Numbered from the stretch's first letter, positions 1 to 61,244 are shown. The stretch: DNA of 64,000 nucleotides from a phage (GCA_025823825.1 GCA_025823825.1_4720.1); one strand, 5' to 3'. Numbers and translations are program-made. The notes: a model not told the origin generated them from the letters alone.

Positions 1-3000
1 TTACTTGTAGGCACCGCAATGGGCTTTGATGAGGAAAAGCACCGCTTGCATCGGTTTATTGAACTGTTGCCATAACGTCAATGCCGGATGGAACAGCCAA
101 TCTTCCAGGCCGAGAACAATACCGTAGTTAACGACATTATTAACATCGTTCTCAACGTTGAGTTCGCTGTCCAGGAATTTATCGATTGAACGCAGGGTCT
201 GCATGGCGTTGTCAGCAATAAGCCAAGCTTCATGCGCTTCACGAGCCGCACGCAGCACTGCCTCCAGTTCGCTGATAGTAGCTACCGGTAATTCCTCGCT
301 GGTGAGGTCGTCAGAAACCGTAAACTGGCGATTGATACCGGTGTAGATCCACTGCATCAGTTTCGCTGCTTCCTCGTTCGGGTTGTTACGCGTTGTCGCA
401 TAAGTCGCGCTCACCTTCACGATGTGTGTTTCACCAAGATACGCTTTGGAACCAATGCCTTTACGATCGCTGTCTTTCCACGGTTGTACGGTAGCGACCA
501 TGAGCTTATCCCATTTCTGAATAGGAATACGCTTCAGACCAACAACCGATCCGGCGGATGTTTCGGACTGGTTGCTCTTCCGCACGTCGCTGAGTTCACG
601 ATCGATAGCAACGATTAATTCACGCGTCATGTTACCAAGCATTTTGATTTCACCCAACGCAGCGATGAGCTTCTTCACATCGGTAACAGGTTCACCATCG
701 ATGGTAAGATGACGGATGAAACGTTTCAGAATAATCCGTTCTGCTGCTGGGTTACCGCGACGCGCTTTAGCCAATGCTTGCTGCGTTTCGGCGAACAGCT
801 TATCCCATGGAGCCGTAGCGGCGGTATAGTAACGGTGGTTGGTTTCAATCCAGTTACCGATACGGTTGACCGCGCTCTTAACGGTATCCATGAATCCTTC
901 CATCGCAATTTCGGTAGCTTCGACGTTACCCTGGAAGTTATCAGGACCGATCTCACGTGCCGCTACCAGAATACCTTCCACCGCGCTCACCGCATGACGA
1001 CCGATAGCCAGATTTCGCTGTGCTTCTTCAGCACGCTCAACGAATTCCACTACCGCAGGATCGTCGACGATTTCCGCCTCGGCAACAACACGAGTACCTG
1101 CATCGCCTTCCAGTGTTTCGATGGTGACAACCGGATCGTTTTCACCAGCAACATCCTGATACTCTTCCTGTTTGAGATCGCCATCATCGGCCGCTGCAAC
1201 AGCGGTGAGTATACGAACGGTAACATCGCCGAGTTCTTTTGCAGCGAATCCGTAAACAGTGCATGCGGTCGTTGCAAAGTTCATCAGAGTACGTGTGCGC
1301 TGCGTGACGTAGCGTGCGCCTGATTCGTTTTCCACTTTGTCTAGATCGCGGAGTAACTGCTCGGCCGTCTCCTGAAGTTGAGTAGCTGCTTTCAGGAGGT
1401 CTTCGTCAAACAGTTTCGTTGACGCATCGATCAGCATTTCAACGCTAACGTTGGACGGTACAGCATCATCCTGCTGTTTCATGGCGCTAAGTTCGTCACG
1501 GAACTCACGAATGCCGTTTAACGCATCGTCGATGGAATATCCGAACGCTTTCACGCCTGCCATTCCAAGAGCGGCTTTCATTTCACCTGGATGCTGAACT
1601 TGCTCGCCTTCCTTGCTGTTCTTTAACTCATCGAAATATTTCTTCGACGCGTCCGCAATACGTTTACTGTCTTTAACCGCATTTACGATCTTATCGACAG
1701 ATTTCGAGTCGTTTGCGAGCAGGGTATCCAGTTTATTCCACTCAACGTCAACCTTCTTGGTGTCGCTCGGCGGAGGAAGCAGTTTCATCACTGGTGCTGT
1801 GCGTTGTTCTTTGGTCAGCTTGTTGGCCTTCTCTTCGATTTTTTTCTTATTAACACCAAAGAGATTTTTCAAACGCGCCACGAGGGCTTTTAAGAACTTC
1901 GCGACCGCTTCGTAAACCGACTTCAGAATCTGTTTAAAGCGACCCGGCTGCTTTTCCCCGTCTTCCAGATTGAGATCGCTGTTCAGTGCGACATCAAGCT
2001 GTTTGTACGATTCCATGATGTATTCGTCTTTGATTTCAGGACGAATCTCGAAGCTTTCCATCGGACCTTCAGCCGGACGGAATTCCATTTTCAGTTCGCC
2101 TTGCAGGGTAGGGTCGACAATGGCGATCGCTTCACCCTGACCATCAGCGTTAAAGCGTTCAGCGTAACGAGTACGGCGAACAATAACACTCTTATCCCCA
2201 TCAAGACGACGTACTACCATGGTGCCAGGAATGTACGGTTGTTCTGTTTCAATGACGGTTACATCTGTTTCACCCTCACCGAGAATAACAGATGCACGCT
2301 GTTCAACAACAGGAACATCTAATACACCACGGGCTTCCAGCTCTTGATGAATTTCGAACGACTCTTGTTTCAGATCTTCATCTTCTTCGTTTTCGTCGCC
2401 TTCATCATCGTCACCTTTGGTGTTTTCATCACCCTTGGTGGTTGTGTCGTCGGTGGCACCAGCGTCAGCGTCGGTGTTAGCAGGTTCTTCGGACGCAGGT
2501 TCGGTGGTGTTGTCCTCCGTGGACGACCCGTCAATGTTATCGACATCAACATCACCTTGCAGTTCTGTTTCCTGAGCAACTGCTTCGGCTTTCTGCTCGC
2601 CGGTATTACCATCATTAGCGTCGACAACAGGTTGTTCGTCAGCGACGGTATCTTCAACCTTTTCTACTTTCTCTACGACATGTTTAATCACGGTGACTTT
2701 GATGGGTTCTTCCGTTGTTTTGGTTTCTGGCGTCACCTCGGCTGCCGCAGCAGCTGTTTCAGCAACAGGTTCTGCTTTTTCCGGTTCGACGACATTACCT
2801 TTAACGCCTTCGGTGGTTTCTGCAGGTTGCGCCGTCTGTTCGATTTGTGCCGGATTGGTCGGATCGATGGCGTTAGCCGCATCCTGAATCTTGTTCTTCA
2901 GGTTGTCACGGTCAGCGTTAACGGTCGGGTCATTGGTTACTTTCGGTGCCGGGGTTTCGGTCGGCGCGTTTGCTGGATATGGGTTCTTCGGCTCTTCGCC

Positions 3001-3378
3001 AGGTGCGGTTGGTACCGCGATCAGAACGAACGGTTGAACGTCGTTACCGTCTTCCATGGTTACGCCGCCGTTACTTGGCGTGAAACGAATTCGCAAACTA
3101 CCATCAATAGGACGGGTCACAATAACAGCGCGTACGACATCTTCACCGTTCTCATCCGTGCTACGAATCACACGAACGGCGTCATCAACAGTAGCCCCTT
3201 CCTCGAGCGTATCTGATTCGATCGTCGCTTCGATGCTGTCTGGCCGTGCCGCTGTAGGTAATGCGATCACCTGCTCTTCTTTATCAGTAGAAAGCGTCGC
3301 TTTGACTTCGATCGGTGTATCGCCGCTTTCCAGGTTAAGATGCGACTTACGCATCAGATCAGCTAACGATTTTTTCAT
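1..3378 (-). CDS. large hypothetical protein (1125 aa) with strongly acidic low-complexity central region; probable virion/morphogenesis protein by context
   Basis: Complete ORF, ATG at 3378 preceded by AAGAGGA, TAA at 1-3; D/E-rich stretch (DDDEGDENEEDEDL); no recognisable catalytic motif. Confidence 0.75.
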   Translation of the reverse strand: MKKSLADLMRKSHLNLESGDTPIEVKATLSTDKEEQVIALPTAARPDSIEATIESDTLEEGATVDDAVRVIRSTDENGEDVVRAVIVTRPIDGSLRIRFTPSNGGVTMEDGNDVQPFVLIAVPTAPGEEPKNPYPANAPTETPAPKVTNDPTVNADRDNLKNKIQDAANAIDPTNPAQIEQTAQPAETTEGVKGNVVEPEKAEPVAETAAAAAEVTPETKTTEEPIKVTVIKHVVEKVEKVEDTVADEQPVVDANDGNTGEQKAEAVAQETELQGDVDVDNIDGSSTEDNTTEPASEEPANTDADAGATDDTTTKGDENTKGDDDEGDENEEDEDLKQESFEIHQELEARGVLDVPVVEQRASVILGEGETDVTVIETEQPYIPGTMVVRRLDGDKSVIVRRTRYAERFNADGQGEAIAIVDPTLQGELKMEFRPAEGPMESFEIRPEIKDEYIMESYKQLDVALNSDLNLEDGEKQPGRFKQILKSVYEAVAKFLKALVARLKNLFGVNKKKIEEKANKLTKEQRTAPVMKLLPPPSDTKKVDVEWNKLDTLLANDSKSVDKIVNAVKDSKRIADASKKYFDELKNSKEGEQVQHPGEMKAALGMAGVKAFGYSIDDALNGIREFRDELSAMKQQDDAVPSNVSVEMLIDASTKLFDEDLLKAATQLQETAEQLLRDLDKVENESGARYVTQRTRTLMNFATTACTVYGFAAKELGDVTVRILTAVAAADDGDLKQEEYQDVAGENDPVVTIETLEGDAGTRVVAEAEIVDDPAVVEFVERAEEAQRNLAIGRHAVSAVEGILVAAREIGPDNFQGNVEATEIAMEGFMDTVKSAVNRIGNWIETNHRYYTAATAPWDKLFAETQQALAKARRGNPAAERIILKRFIRHLTIDGEPVTDVKKLIAALGEIKMLGNMTRELIVAIDRELSDVRKSNQSETSAGSVVGLKRIPIQKWDKLMVATVQPWKDSDRKGIGSKAYLGETHIVKVSATYATTRNNPNEEAAKLMQWIYTGINRQFTVSDDLTSEELPVATISELEAVLRAAREAHEAWLIADNAMQTLRSIDKFLDSELNVENDVNNVVNYGIVLGLEDWLFHPALTLWQQFNKPMQAVLFLIKAHCGAYK

Positions 3379-3393
3379 AAAGCGTTATTCCTC

Positions 3394-4500
3394 TTAAAAG
3401 TAATATTTCAGCGCCTCGCGAGAGACATCAAGCATAGCCGCTGTTGAATTCGTAAAGAACTCGGCATAGCCCACAAGCGGCACCTTGATCCACGCGGTAT
3501 ACGCTGTAAGGTATCGAGAAAGGGCTACCATAGCATCATCAGAAGCAGTAGTAACTGACAACTGACCTTGTTGACGATAAACGTCGTTAAGTTTTGCTTG
3601 TAGATTCCCTGCGATTTCGAGTAACTCGTTGGCGTACTTTTTACGATGGTAACTAACCAGCAAATCAACACCCGTATTTACAGACTCGAGTAGCACACCA
3701 ACTTGTTCTAATGTTGGCGTTGTAACCACCATATCCAGTTCAACGGACGGTACATCCTGGACTTCAAACCGTGCAGATTGAATAGCGAGGGACTGTTGAA
3801 TTGAACCAGAACCTGAGGCGGTAACCTGATCGAGTCGTAGCGTACGGTTGCCCAGTAACGTTACGTTGACGAGTTTCGATTCGTTCAGCGTACTGTAGAC
3901 TTTATGCAATAACGTATACGCATCACGGTTAATCACATCGATTAATGCGGTATCCGTCTGTTTTAAGATAATGTCGAGCGCTCTATCTAACGTATTAGCG
4001 AACTGCTTGAAGTCATCACGGAACGACGAAGACAAGAGATATTCAGCGATTGCTAAATTCTGCTTGTATAACGTATTCCCGGTTGTGAAATCGAACCCAA
4101 AACTGTTCCCATACCGTAGGTGCGGAGCCAACGTCGACGAAGCTTCGAAGCTTTGCGCGATGGGTTTCCGACCAACGGCTTTTGTGTAATGACGGCGGAT
4201 GTTGCTGAGTTCGAGTTGTAGTGCGCGACTACGATCGATAAACCGTGCGATAAACGCGGTAATGTTCCGCAACGTTGTCCAGATCGCATCGATGATGGCT
4301 TTGATGATTTTCATCGCAAGCTGATTGTACGATTCCATCGTGAGGAGATCAGCACTTTCTGTGGTATAACCGGTTGCCGGAATACCGCCTGCTTGCTGAT
4401 AAATAAGCTGGTGAATTTGTCGTTGCGTTGCTGTCTCTGGCACAGGTAATGTTTTTAACAAGCTTAACGCTTGAATCTGTCCGTCATAGGTCTGCAGCAT
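3394..4500 (-). CDS. hypothetical protein (368 aa from internal ATG; track start 4542 gives 382 aa)
   Basis: Internal ATG at 4500 has GAGGAA 7 nt upstream and cuts overlap with upstream gene to 17 nt; the ATG at 4542 lacks an RBS. Confidence 0.65.
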   Translation of the reverse strand: MLQTYDGQIQALSLLKTLPVPETATQRQIHQLIYQQAGGIPATGYTTESADLLTMESYNQLAMKIIKAIIDAIWTTLRNITAFIARFIDRSRALQLELSNIRRHYTKAVGRKPIAQSFEASSTLAPHLRYGNSFGFDFTTGNTLYKQNLAIAEYLLSSSFRDDFKQFANTLDRALDIILKQTDTALIDVINRDAYTLLHKVYSTLNESKLVNVTLLGNRTLRLDQVTASGSGSIQQSLAIQSARFEVQDVPSVELDMVVTTPTLEQVGVLLESVNTGVDLLVSYHRKKYANELLEIAGNLQAKLNDVYRQQGQLSVTTASDDAMVALSRYLTAYTAWIKVPLVGYAEFFTNSTAAMLDVSREALKYYF

Positions 4501-5785
4501 TGCTGGTTTCCTCAAGTTCGAGATGCGCGTCAAGATAATCATTAAGACCGTCGATGACGTCGCAGACAGTTAACAGGAATCGGGCAAAAGCAACCGCCTG
4601 GAAGCCGACGACGTTACGCGCGATACCCACACGTTGAACGATAGCGGATGCGGTGGTATCGTCGTTGTCCATCTGTTGTAGCAAACGCTCGTAAGGTTGA
4701 ATCCATTCGTCCTGGTCGGCAAGGCTTGCTTCAAGACAACGTTTAAATTCCAACTGTCGTAGCGTAGACCATAACGTACTTAATGCGTTGATGATCGCGT
4801 TGGTTCCGTCGATAACATCGTTTAACGGTAAGAAACGGAATCCGTCTTTTGCTGATTGGAAAGATACGGCTTCCCACACAACACTGAACTGCGTTCCTGA
4901 TGCGTCTTCGATGTTGTGTAATTTAAGGTAGGAAGCACCAACAGGAACGTCAACGGCCAGATCGTCTGTTCCGGTAGGTGTTAACGGCTTCTCGCATAAC
5001 GCCTCGTTGATGGCCTCGAGAATATTCTCCCAATAGGCTTCGTTTTCCGCAGCGATACCTTCTTTGTTATCCGCTGATGGTGCTTTTAGTAGCTGCATTA
5101 ATAACGGATCAAGTTGACGGTGCCATGCTGCGAGGATTCCTGTGTTCGTTACGATGTTTTCTGCGGTTTGTCGTAAATCAGCAATACTGCTTACCGCACC
5201 GCCTTTCGGATGGAGATATCGCCAGTTGTAGGGAAAGTTCTCCCAGAATGCGTTATCTTCATCGACGTCGTATTCGGAAATATTTTTCAACGCAGCCGCT
5301 TTCTTTAATAACGGCTTCACCTGACGAACGAATCGACGATAACAACGATTACAGGTATCGATCGCGTAGCGGTATAACTCGTTCATGTAAAGCCATAACG
5401 CTCGGGTTGCTTCTTTTGCGGTCTTGTCAAAACTTTCCATGTTCAGACTCATCCCGCTGGAAGTTTCCTCTTCCAGACCCTCGATGATGTGGTTTGGATC
5501 CATCCCCATCCCGGCTGCTGCGGTCGATGCGATATGTTTGATGGTGTTGATATCGCGTTCCTCGACTTCAGCCATGTTTGGGATAATGTCCAGTCTGAGT
5601 TTATTTAATGTTTGAAGGTGTTGTTCACCTTCTTTCATCACCGTGTTTGTTTCGTCGATTGAGTGAAACTGATTCTCAATATTACCGGCATCGAGAATGT
5701 TGCCAGCGATACCGAACGATTCTACAGGTTCATCATCAATCCCTTGAAACAACGATGTCATGGGTTGTTGTAACACGTTTTCCAT
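4484..5785 (-). CDS. hypothetical protein, member of tandem paralog family (433 aa)
   Basis: ATG with AGGAG upstream; shares conserved core (IASTAAAGMGM...EG...A..ALW) with 5935-7224 and 7234-8550. Confidence 0.75.
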   Translation of the reverse strand: MENVLQQPMTSLFQGIDDEPVESFGIAGNILDAGNIENQFHSIDETNTVMKEGEQHLQTLNKLRLDIIPNMAEVEERDINTIKHIASTAAAGMGMDPNHIIEGLEEETSSGMSLNMESFDKTAKEATRALWLYMNELYRYAIDTCNRCYRRFVRQVKPLLKKAAALKNISEYDVDEDNAFWENFPYNWRYLHPKGGAVSSIADLRQTAENIVTNTGILAAWHRQLDPLLMQLLKAPSADNKEGIAAENEAYWENILEAINEALCEKPLTPTGTDDLAVDVPVGASYLKLHNIEDASGTQFSVVWEAVSFQSAKDGFRFLPLNDVIDGTNAIINALSTLWSTLRQLEFKRCLEASLADQDEWIQPYERLLQQMDNDDTTASAIVQRVGIARNVVGFQAVAFARFLLTVCDVIDGLNDYLDAHLELEETSNAADL

Positions 5786-5892
5786 TTGGGACTCCTACGT
5801 AGGAAAATCTTGGCGGGTGATCATGTCCGCCATTTACCTTCTGAACCGTTGATTCAGAAGTCAAAAGATAACCGGATACCAATGCCATAAAA

Positions 5893-5924
5893 CCTTCCTC
5901 CAACCCAACAGGGAAGGAGGAAGG
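5893..5924. repeat. GC-rich extragenic hairpin element (CCTTCCTCC-N14-GGAGGAAGG)
   Basis: 9-bp perfect stem, loop AACCCAACAGGGAA, flanked by GCCATAA...TTATGC; between co-oriented minus genes. Confidence 0.6.
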
Positions 5925-5934
5925 GATATAGTGG

Positions 5935-7224
5935 TTATGCTTTTTCGGTCGCTGCGTTGAAGTATTTCGCTGCAGCAAATACAGCATCCGCATATTGGCG
6001 TATCGAAGCGCGAAGAATCTTGGTTGACAATACCGTACTTAAACGTGCCATTTCAGAAACCGCGCCTACATAAGGACGGATGGTTTCACGATCGGCTTCA
6101 GGCAGCTTGTCAAGCATGTCGCCCCACTTCGTTTTGATTTTCATACCGTTGAGTTTAGCGGTACGCTCCACAGAACCAGCCAAAGCTTCAACCATGTGGA
6201 AATAAGAGGGGTCGATCGTACGGAACACGTTAAGATAGGAAGTCAACGCACCTTTCAGTTCGTTATCGTCTTTGAAAATGTTTGCGTTCTCTATCTCACC
6301 GGTCACCGTCGTCTCGGCTTCAACCCGAATATTTTTCACCAACGTATAGGCTTTAATCGCGTCACGTTCGTTTTCGACGGCGTCGAGACCTTGAATAACG
6401 AAACGTTTCCCACCACTTTCTGGAAAAACAACTTTATTCAGAGCGGATTTGATAGCCAGCAGGTATTTGTCTAAGATAGACGGAAGCAGAGTTAGGTCGG
6501 TGAGGTCTGCGACCTTTTTATTGATATCGGCTACTTGCTTAAACAATGAATCCATCCCGCTTGCGCTTGCAGCGAGTTGTTCGATATGCTTGCTTGCAAA
6601 CATGGCATTCGCTGATTTCGCATTAGGGAACATATTGACCATATTTTCAGTGGGCTTATCCAGTTGTTTGATATGGCGTTCACCTTTATTCACGGCGGTT
6701 GCGATGCCGACAATTTTGTTGTATGCGACGACCAGGTTCTTGAACAGCATCTGGAGCAGTTTGAACAGTTGTTCAGCGATATTTGCAATGATTACCCAGA
6801 CGGCATATAACGCTTGCGCTGCGCGCTCTTTAAAGCCTTCCAGTACAATAGCTTGCCCTTCCACCAAACGATCGTCAGCTTGGAACATGTCTTCATCAGA
6901 CATCCCCAGGTTTGCTGCTGATGTCGAAGCAATCTGACGGATAAAGGCGACGTCGCTTGCACGTGCTTCAGGGATCGTGGGTGCGATCATATACGCTGTA
7001 TCTTCCAGTGTCGCTGATGTACGCACTGCAATCTCAGCCAGTTCGCTGGATTCATCGATTGCCTCGTCGGTACGTTGAATTACCAACTCAACTTCACCCT
7101 CTTCAATTTCTGCGTTAGGATCGTTCTGCTCCGCCGGAATCGTTGCGAGGAGATCTTCAGCACTCAGTAGAGAGAGTTCGAATGCGTTTTTATTGACGTT
7201 GTCAAAAAGAGAAATGCGGGCCAT
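5935..7224 (-). CDS. hypothetical protein, paralog family member with acidic AxE-rich N-terminus (429 aa)
   Basis: ATG with AAGGA RBS; motif SDVAFIRQIASTSAANLGM...VEGQAIVLEGFKERAAQALYAVW aligns with neighbours. Confidence 0.8.
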   Translation of the reverse strand: MARISLFDNVNKNAFELSLLSAEDLLATIPAEQNDPNAEIEEGEVELVIQRTDEAIDESSELAEIAVRTSATLEDTAYMIAPTIPEARASDVAFIRQIASTSAANLGMSDEDMFQADDRLVEGQAIVLEGFKERAAQALYAVWVIIANIAEQLFKLLQMLFKNLVVAYNKIVGIATAVNKGERHIKQLDKPTENMVNMFPNAKSANAMFASKHIEQLAASASGMDSLFKQVADINKKVADLTDLTLLPSILDKYLLAIKSALNKVVFPESGGKRFVIQGLDAVENERDAIKAYTLVKNIRVEAETTVTGEIENANIFKDDNELKGALTSYLNVFRTIDPSYFHMVEALAGSVERTAKLNGMKIKTKWGDMLDKLPEADRETIRPYVGAVSEMARLSTVLSTKILRASIRQYADAVFAAAKYFNAATEKA

Positions 7225-7233
7225 GTTAGTTCC

Positions 7234-8550
7234 TTAACCTTTGGTATAAGCGTTAACGAGAGTATTGATAAATGAAGTCAGTGCGCGAAGATATTGGTAA
7301 GCGAATTGGTTTTCAATGCGGTTCTCTTTACCACAAAGCAGAATCGCGCGCTTAACGAGCTTAGGATAGATCTCGACATACGGTTGGTAGCTTGCGTCAA
7401 AATTCTGCTCGTTGAAGCGTTTCATGGTGATTTCCTGGATACGCTCCATGGTGCGAATTTTATTGCGAGAGAATATCTCAGAGAAAGCACGTCCGCGTTT
7501 TGTTACCATCAACAAATCTTTCGCGAACGTAAGTTGTCGAACGCTACGCAAATCGTCAGGTGTTGGTAGGACGTACGTTTCTGGATCGTTATCCCATTCA
7601 ACATCTTCAACGACAATATCCAAGTCGAGGTAACGTTTAACAGCATCGATGATATTGTCTTTTGACGCATCGAATTCTTTCAAGAAGACTGCACCGTTGA
7701 CGTAGCGGATGCGTTTCCCGGAAACCGTTGGGGTGATAACATCAGCACCTTCCACGGAACCGCGATTTTCCAGTGTCGATTTGACAGCGTGCAAGAAAGA
7801 CAGATAATCAACAGGAAGTTTTTCAACCTTATCTAAATGGAAGTCGATGATGTTTAACCCTAAACCATCAATAACTGAATAACCGTCCGATTTAAGGAAC
7901 ATCTGATTGAAGGTATCAATGTTGCTTTTCAGCGCGTCTACACCACCAACGTTGTTACGGTTAGGGAAAAGCGTCCGCCACTCCGCTTTAAACGCAACTT
8001 CTTTATTTTCCTCGTATTTGCCTTTGGGCATCTGTTCGAGGGCTGCAACGGCTTTCTGAAAATTACGTGTCTCGTCGTAAACAAGACGGGTAAGCTTCTC
8101 GAAAGCTGCTGCCAGTGTCAGGGCAATATCAACAATGATATCCCAGATCTTTTTCATGGCTTTTACAACGGTGTCCTTAAACCCTTCAACAACCAAAGCT
8201 TCTCCAACTTCAACACGATCGGTTGGAGCTAACAATGTTTCAGAGGGTAGACCCAAAGCAATCGATGCGGATTCTTGAACGTTACGAACCAATGCAACGT
8301 CGCTGTAATTAGCCGATTCGATAGTCGGGGCAACATCAAAACTGATTTCCCGTAATGCTTCAACAGCAGGGAAAGCACGATCAAGTGCATCTTCATGTTC
8401 GTCGATTGTTGCCAAACGTAATTCAACACCGTCCGCGTCGATGACCTCAGCTGTCGGTTCCGCAGCAAGCGCCTCAGCAACAATAGGATATTTTTCAAAC
8501 GCCTCAAGGCTGATATCGCCTTGCGACCCAAATAGCGGTATGTGTACCAT
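7234..8550 (-). CDS. hypothetical protein, paralog family member (438 aa from ATG; track start 8574 is TTG)
   Basis: Internal ATG (MVHIPLF) preceded by GGAGA; motif SDVALVRNVQESASIALGL...VEGFKDTVVKAMKKIW parallels 5935-7224. Confidence 0.75.
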   Translation of the reverse strand: MVHIPLFGSQGDISLEAFEKYPIVAEALAAEPTAEVIDADGVELRLATIDEHEDALDRAFPAVEALREISFDVAPTIESANYSDVALVRNVQESASIALGLPSETLLAPTDRVEVGEALVVEGFKDTVVKAMKKIWDIIVDIALTLAAAFEKLTRLVYDETRNFQKAVAALEQMPKGKYEENKEVAFKAEWRTLFPNRNNVGGVDALKSNIDTFNQMFLKSDGYSVIDGLGLNIIDFHLDKVEKLPVDYLSFLHAVKSTLENRGSVEGADVITPTVSGKRIRYVNGAVFLKEFDASKDNIIDAVKRYLDLDIVVEDVEWDNDPETYVLPTPDDLRSVRQLTFAKDLLMVTKRGRAFSEIFSRNKIRTMERIQEITMKRFNEQNFDASYQPYVEIYPKLVKRAILLCGKENRIENQFAYQYLRALTSFINTLVNAYTKG

Positions 8551-8598
8551 GTGTTGTCTCCAGTAATGATTCAAAAGATAAACCTGAGCGGCATAGAA

Positions 8599-8630
8599 CC
8601 CTCTCCCAACCCGTGAGGGAAGGGAGAGGG
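8599..8630. repeat. GC-rich extragenic hairpin element (CCCTCTCCC-AACCCGTGAGGGAA-GGGAGAGGG)
   Basis: 9-bp stem; loop with inner CCC/GGG pairing around GNRA-type GTGA. Confidence 0.6.
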
Positions 8631-8652
8631 AATATGTCAGTTTATTAACTGA

Positions 8653-9984
8653 TTATTTCTGTTCTGCGTCAGCCGGTTTCTCAGCCGTCTGGCCGCCGTA
8701 CTCTTTCAGCATTTTAGCAACGCCATCCAGAACAGCATTACCTGCCTGAACACCGTACTTCATCAGGCTAACCTGCGGGTTGATGTAGCAAGAACGTGCG
8801 TCTTTCAGTGCAGACAGCACGGTTTTAACACGCTGTTTTTCCTGAGCAGAAACTTCGCCTTTCTTAGACAGTTCAGCTTCCATATCGTCGCCGAATTTAA
8901 CGGCGTCTTTGAAGCCCTGGGATTTCTTACCGATGTTACCTTTCGCAGCCAGCAGTTTATCAGCCAGTGCTTCAACACTGTTGATCACCGCAGCCAACTG
9001 GTTCGGGGACAGTACATCAGCTTCCTGTTCCATCGCGGTGATTGCGTTATTACCGCGTTCCCAGGTAACTTTACCGTCGGTGGTTTTGAATCCCCAACCG
9101 TTCGGACCTTTCACATCAGCGATCGCAGGTGCGTTCAGTTTGTCGGTGTACTCAGTATGTGATTTAGACTTAACGAGTTCAACGAATTTATCCGCACGAT
9201 CGTCAGCCGCCTTCATTGCTTTCTCGAAGGTATCTGCGATTTTGCTTGATGCGCCAGCGATATCGGTATCGCCAATGTAACCGGTAACAGTGGTGCCCAG
9301 TTTAACTTTCGCGTTCTTCGGAGAGCCTTTACGTTTGGCGATCATTTCTTTCAGTTTAGCCGCACGCGCTTTCAGTTTGGTTGCACCGTCGAAGATACGA
9401 TCGATGAACTTCACGAAGTTGTCCCAGGTGGATTTCAGGAAGTTCTTAATTGCGGTCCACAGTTTCTGCCACCATTTTTGTTCTTCCAGGAAGATCATGT
9501 TGGTTGCATCGTAACGGGAAGCGGAACCGCCGAAGCTTTCGAAGGACGGCATGGTTTCCGGCAGTTTGAAACCGATAGTACCACACAGACGTTTCAGATT
9601 ACGCATGTGTTCCTGAGCGGTTTGTGCAGACATACCGCCGTCTTTCAGGTAGCTTTCGGTCGCAACAACGGTTTCCGTCAGTTCATCCATGGCTTCGTCC
9701 ATGGCTTCTGCGGTTTCGTCGTCTTTTGCAATTTCGATAACAACGGCATCAACCTGCTCGATATCACCACGAACTTCGATAGCCAGTTCGGTTTCAGCTG
9801 CGGTATCTTCAGCAATTTCAGCACGTTCGGTCAGTTCAGCGACAACGGTTTCATCCGCTGCTGCAGCATCAGCTGCCGGTTCTGCTTCAACGGTTGCCGC
9901 TGCATCCGGATCGATTTCAGCAGCAAGTTGAACCAGCTGTGCGTTAGATGGATTTGCGACAAGACGATCAAAAATAGAAGGCAT
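8653..9984 (-). CDS. hypothetical protein with very acidic Ala/Glu-rich N-terminal third (443 aa); possible distant member of the same family
   Basis: ATG with AAAGGA RBS; N-terminal 100 aa dominated by A/E/D/T; TAA stop at 8653. Confidence 0.75.
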   Translation of the reverse strand: MPSIFDRLVANPSNAQLVQLAAEIDPDAAATVEAEPAADAAAADETVVAELTERAEIAEDTAAETELAIEVRGDIEQVDAVVIEIAKDDETAEAMDEAMDELTETVVATESYLKDGGMSAQTAQEHMRNLKRLCGTIGFKLPETMPSFESFGGSASRYDATNMIFLEEQKWWQKLWTAIKNFLKSTWDNFVKFIDRIFDGATKLKARAAKLKEMIAKRKGSPKNAKVKLGTTVTGYIGDTDIAGASSKIADTFEKAMKAADDRADKFVELVKSKSHTEYTDKLNAPAIADVKGPNGWGFKTTDGKVTWERGNNAITAMEQEADVLSPNQLAAVINSVEALADKLLAAKGNIGKKSQGFKDAVKFGDDMEAELSKKGEVSAQEKQRVKTVLSALKDARSCYINPQVSLMKYGVQAGNAVLDGVAKMLKEYGGQTAEKPADAEQK

Positions 9985-10049
9985 AATTTTGTTTCCTTTA
10001 CAATAAATTGCACATTAGCTAATGCGGCTTAAGTGAACCGTCAGTTCAC

Positions 10050-10580
10050 TTAAAAGCCCTTAAAACCCGGTGCCATAGGTTGCCCAAACACCGCATTCAA
10101 AGTACATATGATGTCCTGGATACCATTGTCCCAATGGAGCCAAGTACGCACCATCTCTTCGTCTGACAACGCGATATAACTCATAAGTTTACCGCTGCTT
10201 TCCAGACGTTGGTGTGAACTTAACGATTGACGATCTGACCAGTTATCAATCAGTTGTCCAGCAATCTGAACGTTTGTGTCTCGTCTACCCGTGTGAATGA
10301 ATCGTAGCGTATCACGGATAAACTCCAGACTGGTGAAGTTCAGATTTGGGTTATGGCTGTTCATTTCCACCCAATCGGTGATGGGGTACATCAAACGATA
10401 AAGGGTAGAAAGAACCTGACGCTCATATTTCCAATCATCGAGAGGAGTACCGTCGACCAAACGCTGATACAAACTAACAACGTCACGATCGTAGTTCTCC
10501 TGGCGTTTTACGCCGTTAACCGGAAATCCAAAGAACCCGGTACCGTATAACGTTAAAGGGACGTCACGAAGTGCACTCAT
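10050..10580 (-). CDS. hypothetical protein (176 aa from internal ATG)
   Basis: Track start 10712 is TTG and would overlap upstream gene by 136 nt; internal ATG at 10580 forms an ATGA overlap with the stop of 10577-11479. Confidence 0.6.
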   Translation of the reverse strand: MSALRDVPLTLYGTGFFGFPVNGVKRQENYDRDVVSLYQRLVDGTPLDDWKYERQVLSTLYRLMYPITDWVEMNSHNPNLNFTSLEFIRDTLRFIHTGRRDTNVQIAGQLIDNWSDRQSLSSHQRLESSGKLMSYIALSDEEMVRTWLHWDNGIQDIICTLNAVFGQPMAPGFKGF

Positions 10581-11479
10581 ACAGCCGCCTCTTCTTTTCG
10601 TTTGATGTCGTAACGAAGTTTCTTCAGCCTGTCTTCGTGATATTCGATCTGCTGCTGGATTTTTGGATCGTTGCCCGCATTCTGTTGCTTTTGCTTCAGT
10701 GACAAAATCCAATACTCCAGCGCTTGGGCTTCTTCTTTGGCTGCTTGTAATGATGCTTCTTCACGTTCGCTGCGCCAGATACGGAAACGGTAAACAAGCG
10801 TGTCGGTTACATCGCCGTTAGCCCACGAACCCATACGCATCGGGTCAGTATTACCCGCATTGTACAATCCGTTACCAACACCGTCTTCATCAGAAACCAC
10901 GACATCCGGGATTTTATCCAATCCAGCAAGGATCTGTTGTTTCTGTCCACATAGCACCTCGGTGGCAACGGCGAAACCGTACATATTGGCGGTCAGGTAA
11001 GCAATCTCGTTTTTGGTGAAGAACTCACCAAGTGCTTTATCACCACCCGGCATGCTTTCGCAGATGACCGTCGCACGAAGCAGCGTACGAGCGTAGCTAA
11101 CGTAGAAGCCCAGAGACTCAACAAGACGTACCAGAGCGGCTTCTTTGAAACTCAGACCGTCAGCAGCAACATCGATTTCCAGGTTTTTGTTAACGCGTTT
11201 AACAATTTCTGGAATCAGATCAACAGCATTACGTAGCGCTAAGTGAACGTTTTCTACCCAGCTTCCAGAGCGAACGCGGGTTAAACGCTGGTGCAGATCC
11301 TTATCAGCAAGTTTCCATAGGGCGCTTTCACCCTTTTGGAGAAGCGAAGCGGATGTCTCGTAGTAAGGAATCGCGGTGTTGTTGATTTCGTCACGGATTG
11401 ATTCGAGTGCGTCAGCAACACCTGTGCGTTTAAAAAGCGGCTTCAAACCGCGAATGAATTCTTTAAAATCAATTGCCAT
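10577..11479 (-). CDS. hypothetical protein (300 aa)
   Basis: ATG with AGGTG upstream; no recognisable motif. Confidence 0.75.
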   Translation of the reverse strand: MAIDFKEFIRGLKPLFKRTGVADALESIRDEINNTAIPYYETSASLLQKGESALWKLADKDLHQRLTRVRSGSWVENVHLALRNAVDLIPEIVKRVNKNLEIDVAADGLSFKEAALVRLVESLGFYVSYARTLLRATVICESMPGGDKALGEFFTKNEIAYLTANMYGFAVATEVLCGQKQQILAGLDKIPDVVVSDEDGVGNGLYNAGNTDPMRMGSWANGDVTDTLVYRFRIWRSEREEASLQAAKEEAQALEYWILSLKQKQQNAGNDPKIQQQIEYHEDRLKKLRYDIKRKEEAAV

Positions 11480-11518
11480 GAGTGAGCACCTATGCTATTT
11501 CGAAACAGGTTGCGAGTG

Positions 11519-12625
11519 TTAACGAATCTGTGGGACGTTTCCGGTACGGAGCGCCTGGAGGATCGTCAGGAGATCGGAACCCGAGGTTGACGAACTGTTG
11601 GATTTTTCCAGTTGCTTGAAGCTTACGGTGGTCCCTTGATCCAAGCTGTGGAAATAGAAGGTCACCATCTCTTCAGCTTCGTCGATGATGATCAACTGCA
11701 TTGCGAGGGCTTCAGCCATGACTTTCTGACGTGTGTTATAGTCAGATAAACGACGTCCGATCTTACGCTCGATGGCTTCCTGGTTAGCCTTAGAGATGAT
11801 ATAGGTGGAGGCGATTGCTCCAGAAGAAGGGATCTTTGTGCTCGCTGCAGCTTTTGCGGCATTGATGCGCGCAGCATTAACAGCCTTGCGGATACCCTCT
11901 TTATCCATACGTGAGATTCGTTTATGCTCACGAACCAGATCGCTAAGCAGGATCATATCGCTCCAGAAAGACAGCTCACCAGCCATCATGCGATGCCAAC
12001 GTGCTCGCCAGGTGTTCTGTGGGCCACCGATCGCTAAAATCGCTGCAAGCACTTCCGCCGGTGAACTCGCGATACGCATGCTGATGTTCAATGGCATTTT
12101 CATCGTTGCCTGACCATCGGTCAGCGTCACGGTTAAGAACTTGCCGGTGACCGCGTTCGCATCTTTGTTCAGCAATTCGATCGCTGCGTCGCTGGCTCCA
12201 ACATCGGTGCTATTTTTTTGTTTCCCCAGCAGGTTGAATCCTTTGTCATCAAGGAAAACAAGGCTTTTGCTATCCGCACTTTCCAGTGCTAATTTGACAG
12301 CCTTATCCATCAGATTAGCGTTACGATTTGGGTTCACACGACCCAGCGTTTTATCGACACTGATATTACCCACCTGCATGATGGTGTTCAACGCCAGTAA
12401 ATAGAACCCGGTATACATGTTTTCAGCGGTGCGCATGCAGTTGCCTAACGCATTGCGTGCGTCGCTATAATACAACTCACGTTCAAAGATCAGCGGTGCG
12501 ATAACGCGTGAAGGTTGTGAGAGTTCAACCAGCGAACCTGGCTGGATAAGTTTATTAACTTCGTAGACTTTAGCGATACCGGACGCAACAACGTTAACAG
12601 CGTCGGCAATTTCTGATGCTACCAT
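11519..12625 (-). CDS. hypothetical protein (368 aa)
   Basis: ATG with AAGGA RBS; start is only about 34 nt from the divergently oriented start at 12660. Confidence 0.75.
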   Translation of the reverse strand: MVASEIADAVNVVASGIAKVYEVNKLIQPGSLVELSQPSRVIAPLIFERELYYSDARNALGNCMRTAENMYTGFYLLALNTIMQVGNISVDKTLGRVNPNRNANLMDKAVKLALESADSKSLVFLDDKGFNLLGKQKNSTDVGASDAAIELLNKDANAVTGKFLTVTLTDGQATMKMPLNISMRIASSPAEVLAAILAIGGPQNTWRARWHRMMAGELSFWSDMILLSDLVREHKRISRMDKEGIRKAVNAARINAAKAAASTKIPSSGAIASTYIISKANQEAIERKIGRRLSDYNTRQKVMAEALAMQLIIIDEAEEMVTFYFHSLDQGTTVSFKQLEKSNSSSTSGSDLLTILQALRTGNVPQIR

Positions 12626-12659
12626 ATTGAAATCCTTATTTACAAATAAAGGAAAGAAA

Positions 12660-13865
12660 ATGTCTAATTACTACGACCAAGCTATTCAAACCATTCAGGA
12701 GAATAATGCGTCGTTAACACCCGAAGCTGTGGAGGCAGCGGGCAATGCGGTGTTATTCACTGATTCGGATTGGGCAATAGCGCGGAAGAATATTCGTACC
12801 AGTGTCGGTCAAGGGACATACGAGGACAGTATCGCCAGACGGTATCGGAATGTGTCACCTATTCCAGGGAACAGCCCGATTCCGATTAACCGCGATCATG
12901 CCGGTATTACCTTCTTTACACGACCTAATTTACATCTTACCGACGCGAACTTAAAACGAGATCGACGTTTGTGGTCGTTACGCACGGATAACCCTAACAG
13001 TATTCAGGCTGTTGTCCGCGACTACTTGGACCCTGTGGGTGCCAGAAAGCGGAACCATCGAGGACGTGCCATCGTCGATGAGCGCAATCCATTCATAAGT
13101 ATACTGACGGACAACCTGACGGATATCAGCGGTTTCAATGACATGGAAATGCAGGTCTATCAGGGCAAACCGGGATTACGCCAAGAAACCGTTGTGATGG
13201 CTGACGGTTCAGTGGATATGTTTCAACCCTATAACCTGAACGCGACGTTCAAGAACATCATGGGTAACCCCATCATGTTCCTTCATTATATTTGGTTGAT
13301 TTACATCGCTGGTGTGCATAATGGCGAACTGACGCCAAGCCCTCAGGCCATCATTGATAATGAGATGGATTACTGGACAAGATGTTATCGTATCATCTTG
13401 GATCCGACTGGGATGTATGTTCGTTATATCTTCGCACCGACCGCGATGTTTCCTGTCGGACTACCGATTGGTAATATGGCCAACTACAGCATCGATAAAC
13501 CCTTCACGCAAGATAACGAACGTATCACTATTCCATACCAAGCGGTTGGTAACAACGCATTTGATGAGATTCTGAAGGATGAATTCAATCGACTTGTCCT
13601 GATGTTCTATTACGGTGAGAACGATACCCGTACGTTCCTTGAAGATGAGGAGTTGGTACCTATCTCACCCTACGAGCGTCGAATCATGTCGTATCGTGTC
13701 GATATGTATCCATTTATTCATCCGTTGACCTCAGAGCTTCTTTGGTTCGTACCCGCTGATGATTACAACGAATTCTATCTGGATCTTGAGCCGTCGGCGT
13801 TACCACCGGATACGTTCAGTCGCGATCTTGTCCGTACCACCATTCCGCAAAATTACGAGGGATAA
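12660..13865 (+). CDS. hypothetical protein (401 aa from ATG; track start 12627 is TTG)
   Basis: ATG preceded by AAAGGAAAG; first gene of a two-gene plus-strand island. Confidence 0.75.
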   Translation: MSNYYDQAIQTIQENNASLTPEAVEAAGNAVLFTDSDWAIARKNIRTSVGQGTYEDSIARRYRNVSPIPGNSPIPINRDHAGITFFTRPNLHLTDANLKRDRRLWSLRTDNPNSIQAVVRDYLDPVGARKRNHRGRAIVDERNPFISILTDNLTDISGFNDMEMQVYQGKPGLRQETVVMADGSVDMFQPYNLNATFKNIMGNPIMFLHYIWLIYIAGVHNGELTPSPQAIIDNEMDYWTRCYRIILDPTGMYVRYIFAPTAMFPVGLPIGNMANYSIDKPFTQDNERITIPYQAVGNNAFDEILKDEFNRLVLMFYYGENDTRTFLEDEELVPISPYERRIMSYRVDMYPFIHPLTSELLWFVPADDYNEFYLDLEPSALPPDTFSRDLVRTTIPQNYEG

Positions 13866-13868
13866 TAA

Positions 13869-16862
13869 ATGAGCGTAACCAACAAAGATCTTGCTGAACA
13901 GCTCAATCGCTATATGCTTTCACCTATTGAAATGCAGGCTGTTGCAAGCGATATGATCCGTTTGGCTTCTGATGGTGAATTAACCCTGGTTGATCCCAGC
14001 TGTCCGTTTGTTTATCTGCTGGAGGTTGCAACGGCGACGGCGGCGAACCAGAACGCGCGGGATGAGTCCCGTGTTCGCGAACTGTATCCAAAACTTGCGA
14101 CCAACTGGAGCCAGCTTTATCGTTGGATGTATGATGAGTCGTACGTTGGACGTTTCGCAATGCCGGGTAAAACGGAAATCATCTATTCGTTAGGGTATCA
14201 GGAAATCCTCGATCGTGCTGTAGAGATTCCCAACACCATCGCCTCCGATGATTTAAGCCGTTCTTACAGCCGTAAGTTAGTGATACCACGTACGACGGCG
14301 TTTACGGTGGCTGGGATGGATTTCGGGTTGCATTATCCCATCGAAATCCAAGTACAAGCGCACGACCAGATACGTGTCGTTTATAACACTGATAACATCA
14401 GCCCATTGCAAACCTTGGAGAGTAACCAAGTTGAGTATGGGGTTGTTCGTGTAAAAGCGGGTAAAGTGTTGGTGATGCGTATCCCGCTGTTCCAGTTTAA
14501 AACGCTGGTAAAAGATGTGCCGTTTAACAGCGTTCACGGGATGAACAGCAGCATTACCTTCGAAGATCAGTTTTACCATTGTCGTGCGTACATGTCGTCG
14601 GATAACGATACCTGGACGGAGATAGCGACAACACACAGTCAGCAGATCTACGATCCGTTAACACCAACTATCGCGTTACAAGTAGAAGGGAACAAACTTA
14701 ACTGGCGTGTTCCTGAAATTTATTTGTCTCAAGGTACGATGGATAAAAGCACCATTCGACTTGAGGTGTTGACGACGAAAGGGAAAATCAGCGTCGACCC
14801 GTCTGATTACGACGTGACCGATTGGAAAGATAACTACATCGATTTGTCACCAAAAGCTGAACAGAAATACAGTGCGCCGCTAAGTGCGTTCAACATTAAA
14901 GGGATTTATAGCGAAGGGGCATTGTCGGGTGGGCGATCTGCGTTAACGTTCGAGGAACAACGTGAACGTGTTATGGCGGGCGTGAACAAAACCAAGGTAC
15001 CGATCACGGGAACGCAGGTAGAGCTGGTGCTTCAAGATGCGGGCTATGGGATGGTGACCACCATCGACAACGTAACCAATCGTTCGTTCCTGGCAACCCG
15101 AGATTTACCGCAATTGAGCGACAGCGTGCCGCAAGCCGGTTCGTTGATGGGGTCTTTCTATACGTCAGCTGCAGCATTGGTGAAAAGTAAGTTTGTCGCT
15201 GATAACGGCGATCGTATTACGATTAAACCTGACTGCCTGTATCGTGACAGTAACGGAAGTATCACACTGTTGTCAGACGATGAAATTGACCGTATTAATG
15301 CAGGCAACTCCGATGCGAAGTTGAACGCGGTAAACAACGCCATGTTGTTTTACAGTCCGTTTCATTACGTATTAGACGCAACAAGCGATTTCGACATACA
15401 TGCTTATTACCTGGATGCCCCTAAGATCGGCACGCAAGCATTCCTCGACGCGAACGAGACAATCCCGTTAACCGCTATGGTGACCGGATACCGTCTGGAT
15501 CGTATCGCCGAAGGATATCGTCTAAGCCTCATTGTAGAAGGTAACGACGCATGGAAAGCGCTCGACGATAAAAACGTGCACATCCAGCTGGGGTTCAATC
15601 CGCGTGGTGAGGGTGATTACGCAACGATGTTAGCATCGCCTACAACCGATGAACAAGGTCGTCGTTTGTTCACTTTCGATATCACCACGAATTATGATTT
15701 TACACGAATCCTGGCCGATGATTCCACGGCGTATGAACCATATATCGCATTGACTTCGTTCTCGATGTATGAATCGACACCGCGGGATTATTGGGCATCA
15801 CTGCAGCAGTATTTGGAAATATTCCATGTGGTGACGGATTACGCGCCGGAAGATGTCGACGGTATCTTACACAGCGCTTCCGATAATTACCTGGTTAAGA
15901 AACTCACGCTTCAAAATGGGTATTGTTTCTACCGTGAACGTCTCACCGCAACCTTTGGTTATGATCTGGATGGTCTTTGGATGCGCTCACGTACGGTGGC
16001 CTCGGAGATTACGTATAAACGTTACACCGAGAACATTCCGTGGGTGTATGATGAAGATATCCCAGCGACGGATGAGACCGGTTCTGTTATCATCGAGCAG
16101 GGTGACGATGGTACGTTGTCGGTTAAATATCTGCATCGTAAAGGTGACCCGAAATTAAACAGTGATGGAAGCCAAGCCTATCGTTACTTGAAAGGCGACA
16201 TCATGAAAGATAATTACGGTAATCCGATCCCCGTCGATGAACGTGAGGTTCTGCGTAACCTGGACATGTTCTTTATTGATGCGTCGTATCTGTTAGCGAA
16301 CGATACAGACGTGATTGAGTATCGTAACGCGATTCCTACGCAGCTTATCGAATGGATCCAGAACGATATCGACACGTTCAGGAATTTCTGTTACGAAGAA
16401 ACAGAGATTTCATTGTATCCTAAGCAATCGCTGGGGTATGTGGATGTTATTGTGGAAAACGGATTGGAAACGACGCTTCCTGCCGCCCTCTCGTTCAACG
16501 TGACACTGTACTTACCAGCTAAGCAATACGCTGACCTGGATTTACGTCAAGTCCTTCAAGCGATGGTATCGAAAGTCATCAATGAATGCTTGACATCCCG
16601 TACAGTAGCTAAAGCAGAAATGATCGCGATGATTCGTGAGGAAGGAGGTGACGACATCCTGAACGTTGAAATCGATGATTTTGGACCAGGTAAGAACCTC
16701 AGTGTTTATACCGCGAAGAACGACGGTGTTCGTTGTGCGGTGAAGAAAGAGCTTTATGTGAAAGCGGATGGTATCTTGTCCGTACGTGAAGCGATCGATG
16801 TAAGTTTTGTGAAACATGCACAAAGCAACAGCACAGCGTTAGCGCAAGGCCTTCGTGTTTAA
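13869..16862 (+). CDS. large hypothetical protein (997 aa)
   Basis: ATG 3 nt after upstream TAA, GAGGGA RBS; no recognised motif. Confidence 0.8.
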   Translation: MSVTNKDLAEQLNRYMLSPIEMQAVASDMIRLASDGELTLVDPSCPFVYLLEVATATAANQNARDESRVRELYPKLATNWSQLYRWMYDESYVGRFAMPGKTEIIYSLGYQEILDRAVEIPNTIASDDLSRSYSRKLVIPRTTAFTVAGMDFGLHYPIEIQVQAHDQIRVVYNTDNISPLQTLESNQVEYGVVRVKAGKVLVMRIPLFQFKTLVKDVPFNSVHGMNSSITFEDQFYHCRAYMSSDNDTWTEIATTHSQQIYDPLTPTIALQVEGNKLNWRVPEIYLSQGTMDKSTIRLEVLTTKGKISVDPSDYDVTDWKDNYIDLSPKAEQKYSAPLSAFNIKGIYSEGALSGGRSALTFEEQRERVMAGVNKTKVPITGTQVELVLQDAGYGMVTTIDNVTNRSFLATRDLPQLSDSVPQAGSLMGSFYTSAAALVKSKFVADNGDRITIKPDCLYRDSNGSITLLSDDEIDRINAGNSDAKLNAVNNAMLFYSPFHYVLDATSDFDIHAYYLDAPKIGTQAFLDANETIPLTAMVTGYRLDRIAEGYRLSLIVEGNDAWKALDDKNVHIQLGFNPRGEGDYATMLASPTTDEQGRRLFTFDITTNYDFTRILADDSTAYEPYIALTSFSMYESTPRDYWASLQQYLEIFHVVTDYAPEDVDGILHSASDNYLVKKLTLQNGYCFYRERLTATFGYDLDGLWMRSRTVASEITYKRYTENIPWVYDEDIPATDETGSVIIEQGDDGTLSVKYLHRKGDPKLNSDGSQAYRYLKGDIMKDNYGNPIPVDEREVLRNLDMFFIDASYLLANDTDVIEYRNAIPTQLIEWIQNDIDTFRNFCYEETEISLYPKQSLGYVDVIVENGLETTLPAALSFNVTLYLPAKQYADLDLRQVLQAMVSKVINECLTSRTVAKAEMIAMIREEGGDDILNVEIDDFGPGKNLSVYTAKNDGVRCAVKKELYVKADGILSVREAIDVSFVKHAQSNSTALAQGLRV

Positions 16863-16883: not shown

Positions 16884-16915
16884 CCCTCCTCCAACCCGTA
16901 AGGGAAGGAGGAGGG
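16884..16915. repeat. GC-rich extragenic hairpin element (CCCTCCTCC-AACCCGTAAGGGAA-GGAGGAGGG)
   Basis: Canonical copy between convergent genes; flanks GCATAA/TATGC extend the palindrome. Confidence 0.65.
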
Positions 16916-37893: not shown

Positions 37894-37925
37894 CCCTCCT
37901 CCTTCCCTCACGGGTTGGAGGAGGG
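37894..37925. repeat. GC-rich extragenic hairpin element, inverted orientation (CCCTCCTCC-TTCCCTCACGGGTT-GGAGGAGGG)
   Basis: Loop is the reverse complement of AACCCGTGAGGGAA; between convergent macro-domain gene and 37943-38317. Confidence 0.6.
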
Positions 37926-43026: not shown

Positions 43027-43056
43027 GCTCCTCCTTCCCTTACGGGTTGGAGGAGC
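43027..43056. repeat. GC-rich hairpin element whose arm provides the SD of 42306-43022
   Basis: Minus-strand reading GCTCCTCC-AACCCGTAAGGGAA-GGAGGAGC-TGCT-ATG. Confidence 0.6.
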
Positions 43057-60769: not shown

Positions 60770-61244
60770 GGGCAACTCCTTTGTTTTTCGTGTAGTAACA
60801 CCAACGTTGATACAACGCATGTTTATTCGTTGTAATCCCAAATTTAACAACAACGTCGTATGTGATAACATTCCAATTTTGGGTAACGTTAAGTCGTTCC
60901 GCGATAAACGCGATAATCGCTTCCCGTTCTTGCTTGGTTAGCGCACGACGAATTCTATTAAGCCGTATAAACTGACGAACCGAGTCATACGAACGGTTTA
61001 AATCGTACGCAATCTCCCTCAGCGATTTTTGTTTGATTACCGACTTGATGTACGCGCGTTCTTCTTCCGTATACGGTCGATGCTTTTGACGTTGACGTAT
61101 TCCCAAACGTCCCAGACGCGCGTCGATGCTGGCGCGTGTTCGTCCTGTCCGTTGTGCGATTTCATCAATCGTCAGCGACGTGTTCAAATACAGGTGTGTA
61201 ACATCTTTTAACTCATCGTCACACCACGGCCGAGGTCGTCCCAT
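60741..61244 (-). CDS. Myb/SANT-like HTH repeat protein, array member C (167 aa)
   Basis: PWCDDELKD...IDEIAQRTGRTRASIDARLGRL; WNVITYDVVVKF; GAGGGA RBS. Confidence 0.75.
   Translation of the reverse strand: MGRPRPWCDDELKDVTHLYLNTSLTIDEIAQRTGRTRASIDARLGRLGIRQRQKHRPYTEEERAYIKSVIKQKSLREIAYDLNRSYDSVRQFIRLNRIRRALTKQEREAIIAFIAERLNVTQNWNVITYDVVVKFGITTNKHALYQRWCYYTKNKGVAHAQVSSLDR

Follow-up and report, generated by a model that had tools for sequence, protein, structure and literature searches.

A probable internal head protein module of six tandem paralogues in a Goslar-like jumbo phage

What are the proteins encoded by the tandem genes at one end of a 64,000-nucleotide stretch of phage DNA (GCA_025823825.1; the whole stretch is hereafter the window), and are they processed at their N-termini? 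An earlier note on this DNA had singled out four minus-strand genes between 4484 and 9984 as a paralogous family with acidic N-terminal regions, and had pointed out that such families in giant phages are often internal head or ejection proteins with propeptides that the prohead protease removes at x-x-E sites. The genes were found to belong to a larger unit: in window positions 1–9984, minus strand, a Goslar-like chimallivirus very probably encodes its internal head proteins as a module of six tandem paralogues of the Pfam family PF12699, here termed A to F. Both the family and its location in the virion were already known, PF12699 being years old and the Goslar orthologues having been described in 2026, and all but the details of cleavage has been published for this nearest relative.

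Positions 4000–10500 of the window are 92% identical at the DNA level to Escherichia phage vB_EcoM_Goslar, a nucleus-forming jumbo phage of E. coli belonging to the Chimalliviridae. Window position 1 corresponds to Goslar position 55117, and the Goslar annotation is collinear with the open reading frames of the window, gene for gene, across gp53–gp63. The six array genes, all on the minus strand, are direct orthologues of Goslar gp53–gp58 in the same order and orientation: A (1–3378, 1125 amino acids) corresponds to gp53 with 93.7% amino acid identity, B (3394–4500, 368 amino acids) to gp54 with 97.3%, C (4484–5785, 433 amino acids) to gp55 with 96.8%, D (5935–7224, 429 amino acids) to gp56 with 77.4%, E (7234–8550, 438 amino acids) to gp57 with 96.6% and F (8653–9984, 443 amino acids) to gp58 with 87.4%. 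C to F are the four reading frames of the earlier note and were present with the boundaries given there. Ribosome-binding sites precede the ATG starts chosen for them, and the start of E, an ATG with a GGAG ribosome-binding site, agrees with the Goslar annotation. The window carries alleles that differ from those of Goslar in gp56 (residues 160–360), gp58 (around residues 230–330) and gp53 (around residues 525–750), and F is 3 amino acids longer than gp58.

Paralogy of the four flagged genes held in part when they were compared by BLASTP. D and E matched with an E-value of 2e-18 (323 columns), C and E with 1e-9, and C and D with 1.5e-7, the pairwise matches covering 118–323 aligned residues outside the low-complexity part. 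F showed no significant BLASTP similarity to C, D or E (E-value > 3), and is tied to them through PF12699 and the fold. D and E show the consensus that had been quoted for the family (SDVAxxR...LG...VEGxAxVxEGFK...W..I), and C shows part of it. Profile–profile alignment with hhalign, in which C, D, E and five distant relatives were set against F and phiKZ gp92–96, gave a weak match (probability 23%, E-value 9e-4), and this match falls on the same motif.

Assignment to PF12699 (phiKZ_IP, the family of phiKZ-like internal head proteins) was judged by Pfam's curated gathering score of 27 bits. F passed it clearly with 73.7 bits, as did the C-terminal 366 amino acids of A with 28.4 bits, whereas E (25.8 bits, E-value 7.5e-6) and B (22.4 bits, E-value 8e-5) fell just below. 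C and D gave no match in the hidden Markov model scan with PF12699; they are placed in the family because of their significant BLASTP matches to E. Many orthologues of E, 95–97% identical to it, bear a precomputed PF12699.14 match, and a distant relative of C (P0124) scored 28.6 bits. F is therefore a textbook member of the family and C, D and E are divergent ones, C being the most divergent paralogue of the array. PHROG families annotated as 'internal head protein' matched F, E, B and A, with F assigned to PHROG 5750 (2e-8) and B to PHROG 12254. The family thus extends past the span that had been flagged: B and the C-terminal third of A are also part of it, with the same motif and with PF12699 matches.

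The AlphaFold2 model of E (predicted local distance difference test score 70, predicted template modelling score 0.72) shows residues 1–39 as disordered, followed by long helices and a small beta subdomain. Foldseek comparison of this model with BFVD returned 86 matches at an E-value of 1e-3 or below. Among the best 50 of these 86 (E-value up to 3.2e-5) were many internal head or virion structural proteins of jumbo phages, with template modelling scores of 0.3–0.65; full-length matches to internal head or virion proteins came from at least 10 phiKZ-like phages, PhiEaH1, 201phi2-1, PhiPA3, RP12 and RAY among them, and the matches to internal head proteins had E-values of 3e-11 to 1e-5. As modelled, E therefore has the helix-rich fold common to phiKZ-like internal head proteins. 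Among solved structures, no sequence match was found for F and no significant Foldseek match in the PDB for the E model. Comparison with ClyA-type alpha-pore-forming toxins and with ESCRT-III, prompted by the association with a lipid vesicle described below, gave no significant structural match to the helical bundle plus beta-tongue of the former or to the hairpin core of the latter.

Gene order points the same way. Homologues of phiKZ gp91, gp90, gp89, gp88 and gp87 occupy 10050–16862, and the tandem array lies directly downstream of them, as is seen for an inner body or ejection module; phiKZ gp87–gp97 and SPN3US gp48–gp54 share the gene order of the window. The homologues of gp89–gp91, which are capsid-internal or injected proteins, fix this synteny. 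A diverged metagenomic relative (L012; ENA ERZ27271673 k141_32367, 128–11235) carries the same module after a gp91 homologue.

For Goslar, direct evidence of virion location is available. Goslar gp53 and gp58 carry PF12699, gp54–gp57 have the same fold by AlphaFold3, and the locus is syntenic with phiKZ gp92–97; all six proteins were identified in virions purified on caesium chloride (CsCl) gradients, with gp58 at approximately 2150 copies per virion, gp53 at 330, gp54 at 70, gp56 at 60, and gp55 and gp57 at 50 each (bioRxiv 10.64898/2026.04.21.720040). Absence from virions, named in the earlier note as what would speak against its proposal, was thus looked for in orthologues 77–97% identical to the window proteins, and every one of them was present. 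The note's inference that these are giant-phage proteins that reside inside the head or are ejected from it was upheld by Pfam, PHROG, the fold of E, synteny and the Goslar liquid chromatography–tandem mass spectrometry of virions.

By orthology, the proteins of the window would sit inside the capsid, with F (gp58) forming the bulk at around 2000 copies and C, D, E and B present in tens. In the work of Armbruster et al., a fusion of Goslar gp58 to superfolder green fluorescent protein (gp58-sfGFP) was packaged, injected and remained with the early infection vesicle (PMC10541120). Of the paralogues, gp58 alone has thus been shown to exit the capsid together with the DNA at infection and to remain at the early lipid vesicle in which the injected genome lies. 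The function of Goslar gp53–gp58 has been called an unsolved mystery (bioRxiv 10.64898/2026.04.21.720040).

We then turned to the acidic N-terminal parts and to the proposed x-x-E processing. The acidity is real: the N-terminal stretches, 80–165 residues long, have a net charge of −4 to −11 per 40 amino acids and an isoelectric point (pI) of approximately 4.05–4.2. The tripeptide richness also cited as a cue did not stand. When each protein was compared with 2000 shuffles that preserved its composition, counts of [S/A/G]-x-E were not above those of the shuffles (P = 0.23 to 0.995), and C contains no such tripeptide before residue 103. The variability ascribed to the N-termini needs qualification, as they do differ between paralogues but are the best-conserved part of the proteins among orthologues.

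All six proteins share a single copy of the motif h-x-h-E followed by [G/S/E][F/Y/Q], with a Trp 8–17 residues after the Glu. With a slash marking the position after the Glu, the motif reads IAME/GF in A (beginning at residue 824, Glu 827), LTME/SY in B (beginning at residue 53, Glu 56), LNME/SF in C (LNME/SFDK, Glu 117), IVLE/GF in D (IVLE/GFK, Glu 129), LVVE/GF in E (LVVE/GFK, Glu 122) and IFLE/EQ in F (Glu 167). In an alignment of eight sequences just three columns are invariant, and this Glu is one of them. Splitting the proteins at this residue gives N-parts of 56 to 827 amino acids with a pI of approximately 4.05–4.7, and helix-rich C-domains of 276–316 amino acids (30–36 kDa) with a pI of 7.9–9.4 in five of the six proteins. 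F, for instance, divides into an acidic N-part (1–167) and a basic C-domain (168–443), A has an acidic N-terminal extension of 827 amino acids before its C-terminal PF12699 domain, and B has a short N-part of 56 amino acids. When F was aligned with SPN3US gp53 and gp54, the conserved Glu coincided with mapped maturation sites (AQE125/GWKE and ARE137/SLWD). It is thus a precise candidate for a maturation site, with an acidic N-part on one side and a mostly basic C-domain on the other.

N-terminal processing of the array proteins by the prohead protease is, by analogy with related phages, the outcome that we moderately favour; that maturation takes place specifically at the conserved Glu is a more tentative proposal, which we put at somewhat less than an even chance. 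In the scheme that homology with phiKZ and SPN3US suggests, the array proteins would be made late and their N-part would bring them into the prohead, where the prohead protease (a homologue of Goslar gp212) would cut after Glu and free the C-domain, the conserved Glu being the most probable site. The acidic N-part may mask or target the basic, probably DNA-associated C-domain. Such processing is documented in the homologues. SPN3US gp53 and gp54 lose 125 and 137 N-terminal residues, with cutting at several A-x-E sites, and in phiKZ, where the motif is S/A/G-x-E, cleavage by gp175 parts the N-regions of gp93 and gp162 from the helix-rich domains; the N-fragment of gp93 (residues 14–84) is retained as cement on the capsid wall. 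The Goslar homologue of gp175, a T4 gp21-like protease, is gp212, which is encoded at Goslar 203033–203839, outside the window, and is present at approximately 160 copies per virion; the map of the Goslar major capsid protein lacks its first 157 residues. A prohead protease gene elsewhere in the genome, which the earlier note had asked for, can therefore be pointed to in Goslar, whereas a tblastn search with phiKZ gp175 found nothing in the window.

Several observations weigh against an internal head module processed in this way. The apparent richness in [A/S/G]-x-E is a by-product of a composition rich in Ala and Glu. The residue two before the conserved Glu is S, A or G only in A, and is V, V, F, N or T in the other five proteins; C is acidic throughout, with a C-domain pI of 4.6, and is the exception to the division into acidic and basic parts. 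No inner-body density was seen in cryo-electron microscopy of Goslar (bioRxiv 10.64898/2026.04.21.720040). Published virion peptides of Goslar were considered for the alphabetical part of the peptide table up to about 'EI', from which no stoichiometry can be drawn. Within that part of the table, gp58 peptides 55–72 and 115–128 span AAE64, AIE70 and AQE125 uncut, gp55 peptide 52–62 is listed, and a weak gp53 peptide runs across AME827/GF. Because of these gp58, gp55 and gp53 peptides, at least some molecules in virions keep their N-regions. Some N-terminal peptides of gp56 and gp57 are missing from the same part, but this is uninformative, because several C-terminal control peptides are absent from it too. 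Processing of the Goslar-type PF12699 proteins, favoured by homology, is plausible.

The alternative that survives best, though we consider it unlikely, is that the proteins are packaged essentially uncleaved and that the acidic N-part is a permanent functional region, perhaps balancing the charge of the basic C-domain or of the DNA in the head, or acting after injection. It draws on the uncut [A]-x-E sites within the gp58 peptides and on the gp55 peptide, all from CsCl-purified virions and from the part of the table just described, on the absence of S, A or G two positions ahead of the conserved Glu in every protein but A, on the lack of [S/A/G]-x-E enrichment, and on the conservation of the N-parts among orthologues. 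Set against this, the homologues that have been studied are all cut (phiKZ gp93, gp95, gp97 and gp162; SPN3US gp53 and gp54), and Goslar has the protease and a capsid protein that appears processed. N-region peptides, moreover, do not exclude cleavage, because residual propeptide peptides are also found in SPN3US virions despite cleavage, and detection of a peptide is no proof of an intact chain, because phiKZ keeps the cleaved N-fragment of gp93 on its capsid wall.

A second alternative, which we judge quite improbable, is that the main role of the proteins is structural and lies within the capsid, where they would set the size of the T=27 prohead as a scaffold or core and cement the inner capsid wall, with injection incidental. 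Against it, injection has been demonstrated for gp58 and the phiKZ homologues, which remain at the vesicle of early infection, and neither gp58 nor any other paralogue is resolved on the Goslar capsid wall; structural and injected roles are, however, not mutually exclusive. More speculatively still, the low-copy proteins C, D, E and B might be no redundant filler of the inner body but specialised injected effectors that act at or help to build the early lipid vesicle, or counter host defences; the acidic N-part would serve for packaging and masking until cleavage at the conserved Glu releases it, and the mosaic alleles (gp56 residues 160–360 and the gp58 and gp53 patches) would reflect diversity among Goslar-like phages driven by host range or defence. 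We regard this as a long shot; if it were true, C, D, E and B would parallel T4 IPI*, and the Goslar-type protease would tolerate a hydrophobic residue two positions ahead of the Glu (V/F-x-E), as does T4 gp21, besides S, A or G. That the four flagged genes form no real family, and resemble one another only through the composition of their acidic, alanine-rich, helical products, can be given practically no credence: F lacks significant BLASTP similarity to C, D and E, the profile–profile match between them is weak and the tripeptide richness is compositional, but the explanation is refuted by the BLASTP matches among C, D and E outside low-complexity sequence, by independent Pfam matches, by a fold search specific to jumbo-phage internal head proteins and by an array that is kept in a diverged relative.

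Predicted RNA structures in the array may bear on the unequal amounts of the proteins. A strong stem-loop (8599–8630, minus strand, −30.5 kcal/mol, z −6.2) lies directly after the F stop and is followed by UUCUAU; it is likely to terminate or attenuate transcription between F, the high-copy member, and low-copy E. A second (5893–5924, minus strand, −27.1 kcal/mol, z −5.2) lies directly after the D stop and is followed by UUUUAU. The two are homologous, with three compensatory pair changes between them. Downstream of the hairpin after F, 20 nt upstream of the E start, lies the box TTATCTTTTGA (8571–8581, minus strand), a second copy of which comes after the other hairpin, in the D-to-C intergenic gap (5861–5871, minus strand). 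These are the only two exact copies in 64 kb, both in the F–E and D–C gaps, and the box is a possible promoter or leader element. The D-to-C gap contains a further hairpin (5811–5832, minus strand), which matches a terminator annotated in Goslar at 60927–60948. Together, the hairpins after F and D would split the array into three transcription units, F, E–D and C–B–A; it counts against this division that its basis is predicted RNA structure only. A terminator after F would fit the approximately 40-fold excess of gp58 over gp57–gp54, and the conserved hairpin cassettes could thus explain the difference in stoichiometry.

The hairpin core CCTTCCCT-NNN-GGGTTGG within a CCCTCCTCC/GGAGGAGGG stem occurs five times in the window against 0.03 expected. 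Besides the copies after D and F (5893–5924 and 8599–8630, both minus strand), it is found at 16891–16908 (minus strand), 37901–37918 (plus strand) and 43033–43050 (plus strand). The copies examined follow gene ends, and their stems differ by compensatory changes; the family is probably the standard terminator of this phage. The terminator features seen at the corresponding places in Goslar do not include these repeated hairpins. Another stable hairpin (10026–10058, minus strand, −19.5 kcal/mol, z −3.6) lies just upstream of F, across the stop codon of the gp59 homologue, and may separate F from the upstream capsid-protein genes.

Apart from Goslar, one of the closest known systems is that of Pseudomonas phage phiKZ. 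Its 'inner body' proteins gp92–gp97, gp162 and gp163 have PF12699 and a helix-rich fold as in the window. As in the window, the phiKZ array follows gp87–gp91 and comprises six tandem genes of which the last is long (gp97, 816 amino acids, against 1125 for A); the N-regions are acidic, the phiKZ protease sites are Glu-directed and the phiKZ proteins are injected. The differences are considerable. Sequence identity is near the detection limit and tblastn gave no match, several phiKZ members are present at approximately 100–200 copies as opposed to one dominant member in Goslar, and phiKZ has S-L/I-E at the conserved Glu, whereas in most of the window proteins V, F, N or T stands two residues ahead of it. 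The inner body is visible in phiKZ and absent from images of Goslar.

In Salmonella phage SPN3US, gp53 and gp54, abundant ejection proteins of paralogue family A, occupy the same locus, after gp48–52. They are approximately 420 amino acids long with acidic N-terminal propeptides of 125 and 137 amino acids, whose sites align with the Glu of F. There are only two such paralogues in SPN3US, and their similarity to F is marginal (best BLASTP E-value 0.008); cleavage there is experimental, whereas the sites in the window proteins are candidates identified by alignment. In T4, the internal proteins IPI, IPII and IPIII are small, basic and DNA-associated, and an N-terminal sequence targets them to the prohead core; the prohead protease gp21 cleaves them behind a Glu, they enter the host along with the DNA, and their loci are hypervariable. 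They are much smaller than the array proteins, with a targeting sequence of approximately 10 amino acids ending in (L/I)-x-E, and the likeness is one of functional analogy and not of membership. No T4 internal protein family appeared in the general Pfam and PHROG scans, in which no dedicated comparison was made. A different kind of capsid-wall protein, phiKZ gp86/Goslar gp65 of the vertex-binding complex (PDB 8y6v_G), gave 7% identity and is fixed on the capsid wall, as opposed to free or ejected array proteins. The gp65 homologue of the window (19777–22581) had no Pfam link to PF12699.

The distribution of the family was examined with broader searches. When 50,697 phage genomes were searched by tblastn with E and F, nothing was recovered beyond Goslar and one weak Pseudomonas phage match, and the C/D/E profile gave nine matches among 1.84 billion representative proteins, so that C, D and E are a narrow, fast-evolving offshoot of the family. 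Comparison of A with itself by BLAST revealed no internal repeats. In the metagenomic relative introduced above, five PF12699-type genes (447, 461, 452, 387 and 1666 amino acids) were found and not six; it has one D/E-like gene, as against two in the Goslar group, and its last gene encodes 1666 amino acids, as against 1125 for A.

Variation relative to Goslar is unevenly spread. Against a DNA background of 95–100% identity, the sharp divergent patches all fall within A, D and F, three of the PF12699 genes. They lie at 6000–6750 in D (51–77% DNA identity to Goslar), 9000–9300 in F (70–73%), and 1200–1950 and 2401–2550 in A (59–94%), and include some intervening 150-nt windows at 84–94%. Orthologues of D fall into discrete identity classes (94–98, 80–84, 75–78 and 66%), with the variation concentrated in residues 160–360, where the alleles are hypervariable. 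Synonymous divergence (dS) in the patches is saturated, and the ratio of non-synonymous to synonymous divergence (dN/dS) is approximately 0.1–0.16; these are therefore old alleles exchanged by recombination. Recent positive selection in the patches was ruled out by the same values. The confinement of recombinant patches to helix-rich domains is, like the candidate maturation site and the hairpin cassettes, a possible guide for experiments.

Upstream of the array, three minus-strand genes correspond to Goslar gp59–gp61. The first (10050–10580) is a homologue of phiKZ gp91 (Pfam PhiKZ_gp91, 1.9e-46), the second (10577–11479) of phiKZ gp90 and the third (11519–12625) of phiKZ gp89, the latter two assigned from PHROG and from the Goslar and phiKZ annotation. 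Neighbours of the array within 10050–12625 match PHROG 3187 and 3239, and gp62 and gp63, on the plus strand, come after gp61. In Goslar, gp59 is part of the vertex-binding complex, and gp60 and gp61 are injected.

Proteins 94–98% identical to D and E (matches P0001–P0160) sit on contigs of approximately 231–249 kb. Assembly names were available for a subset, and some of the D/E-like contigs lie in assemblies labelled Salmonella, Shigella, E. coli or Enterobacter; some of the D/E protein clusters have hundreds of member sequences. Goslar-like jumbo phages thus appear to be common passengers, or to persist in a carrier state, in the sequencing of enterobacterial isolates.

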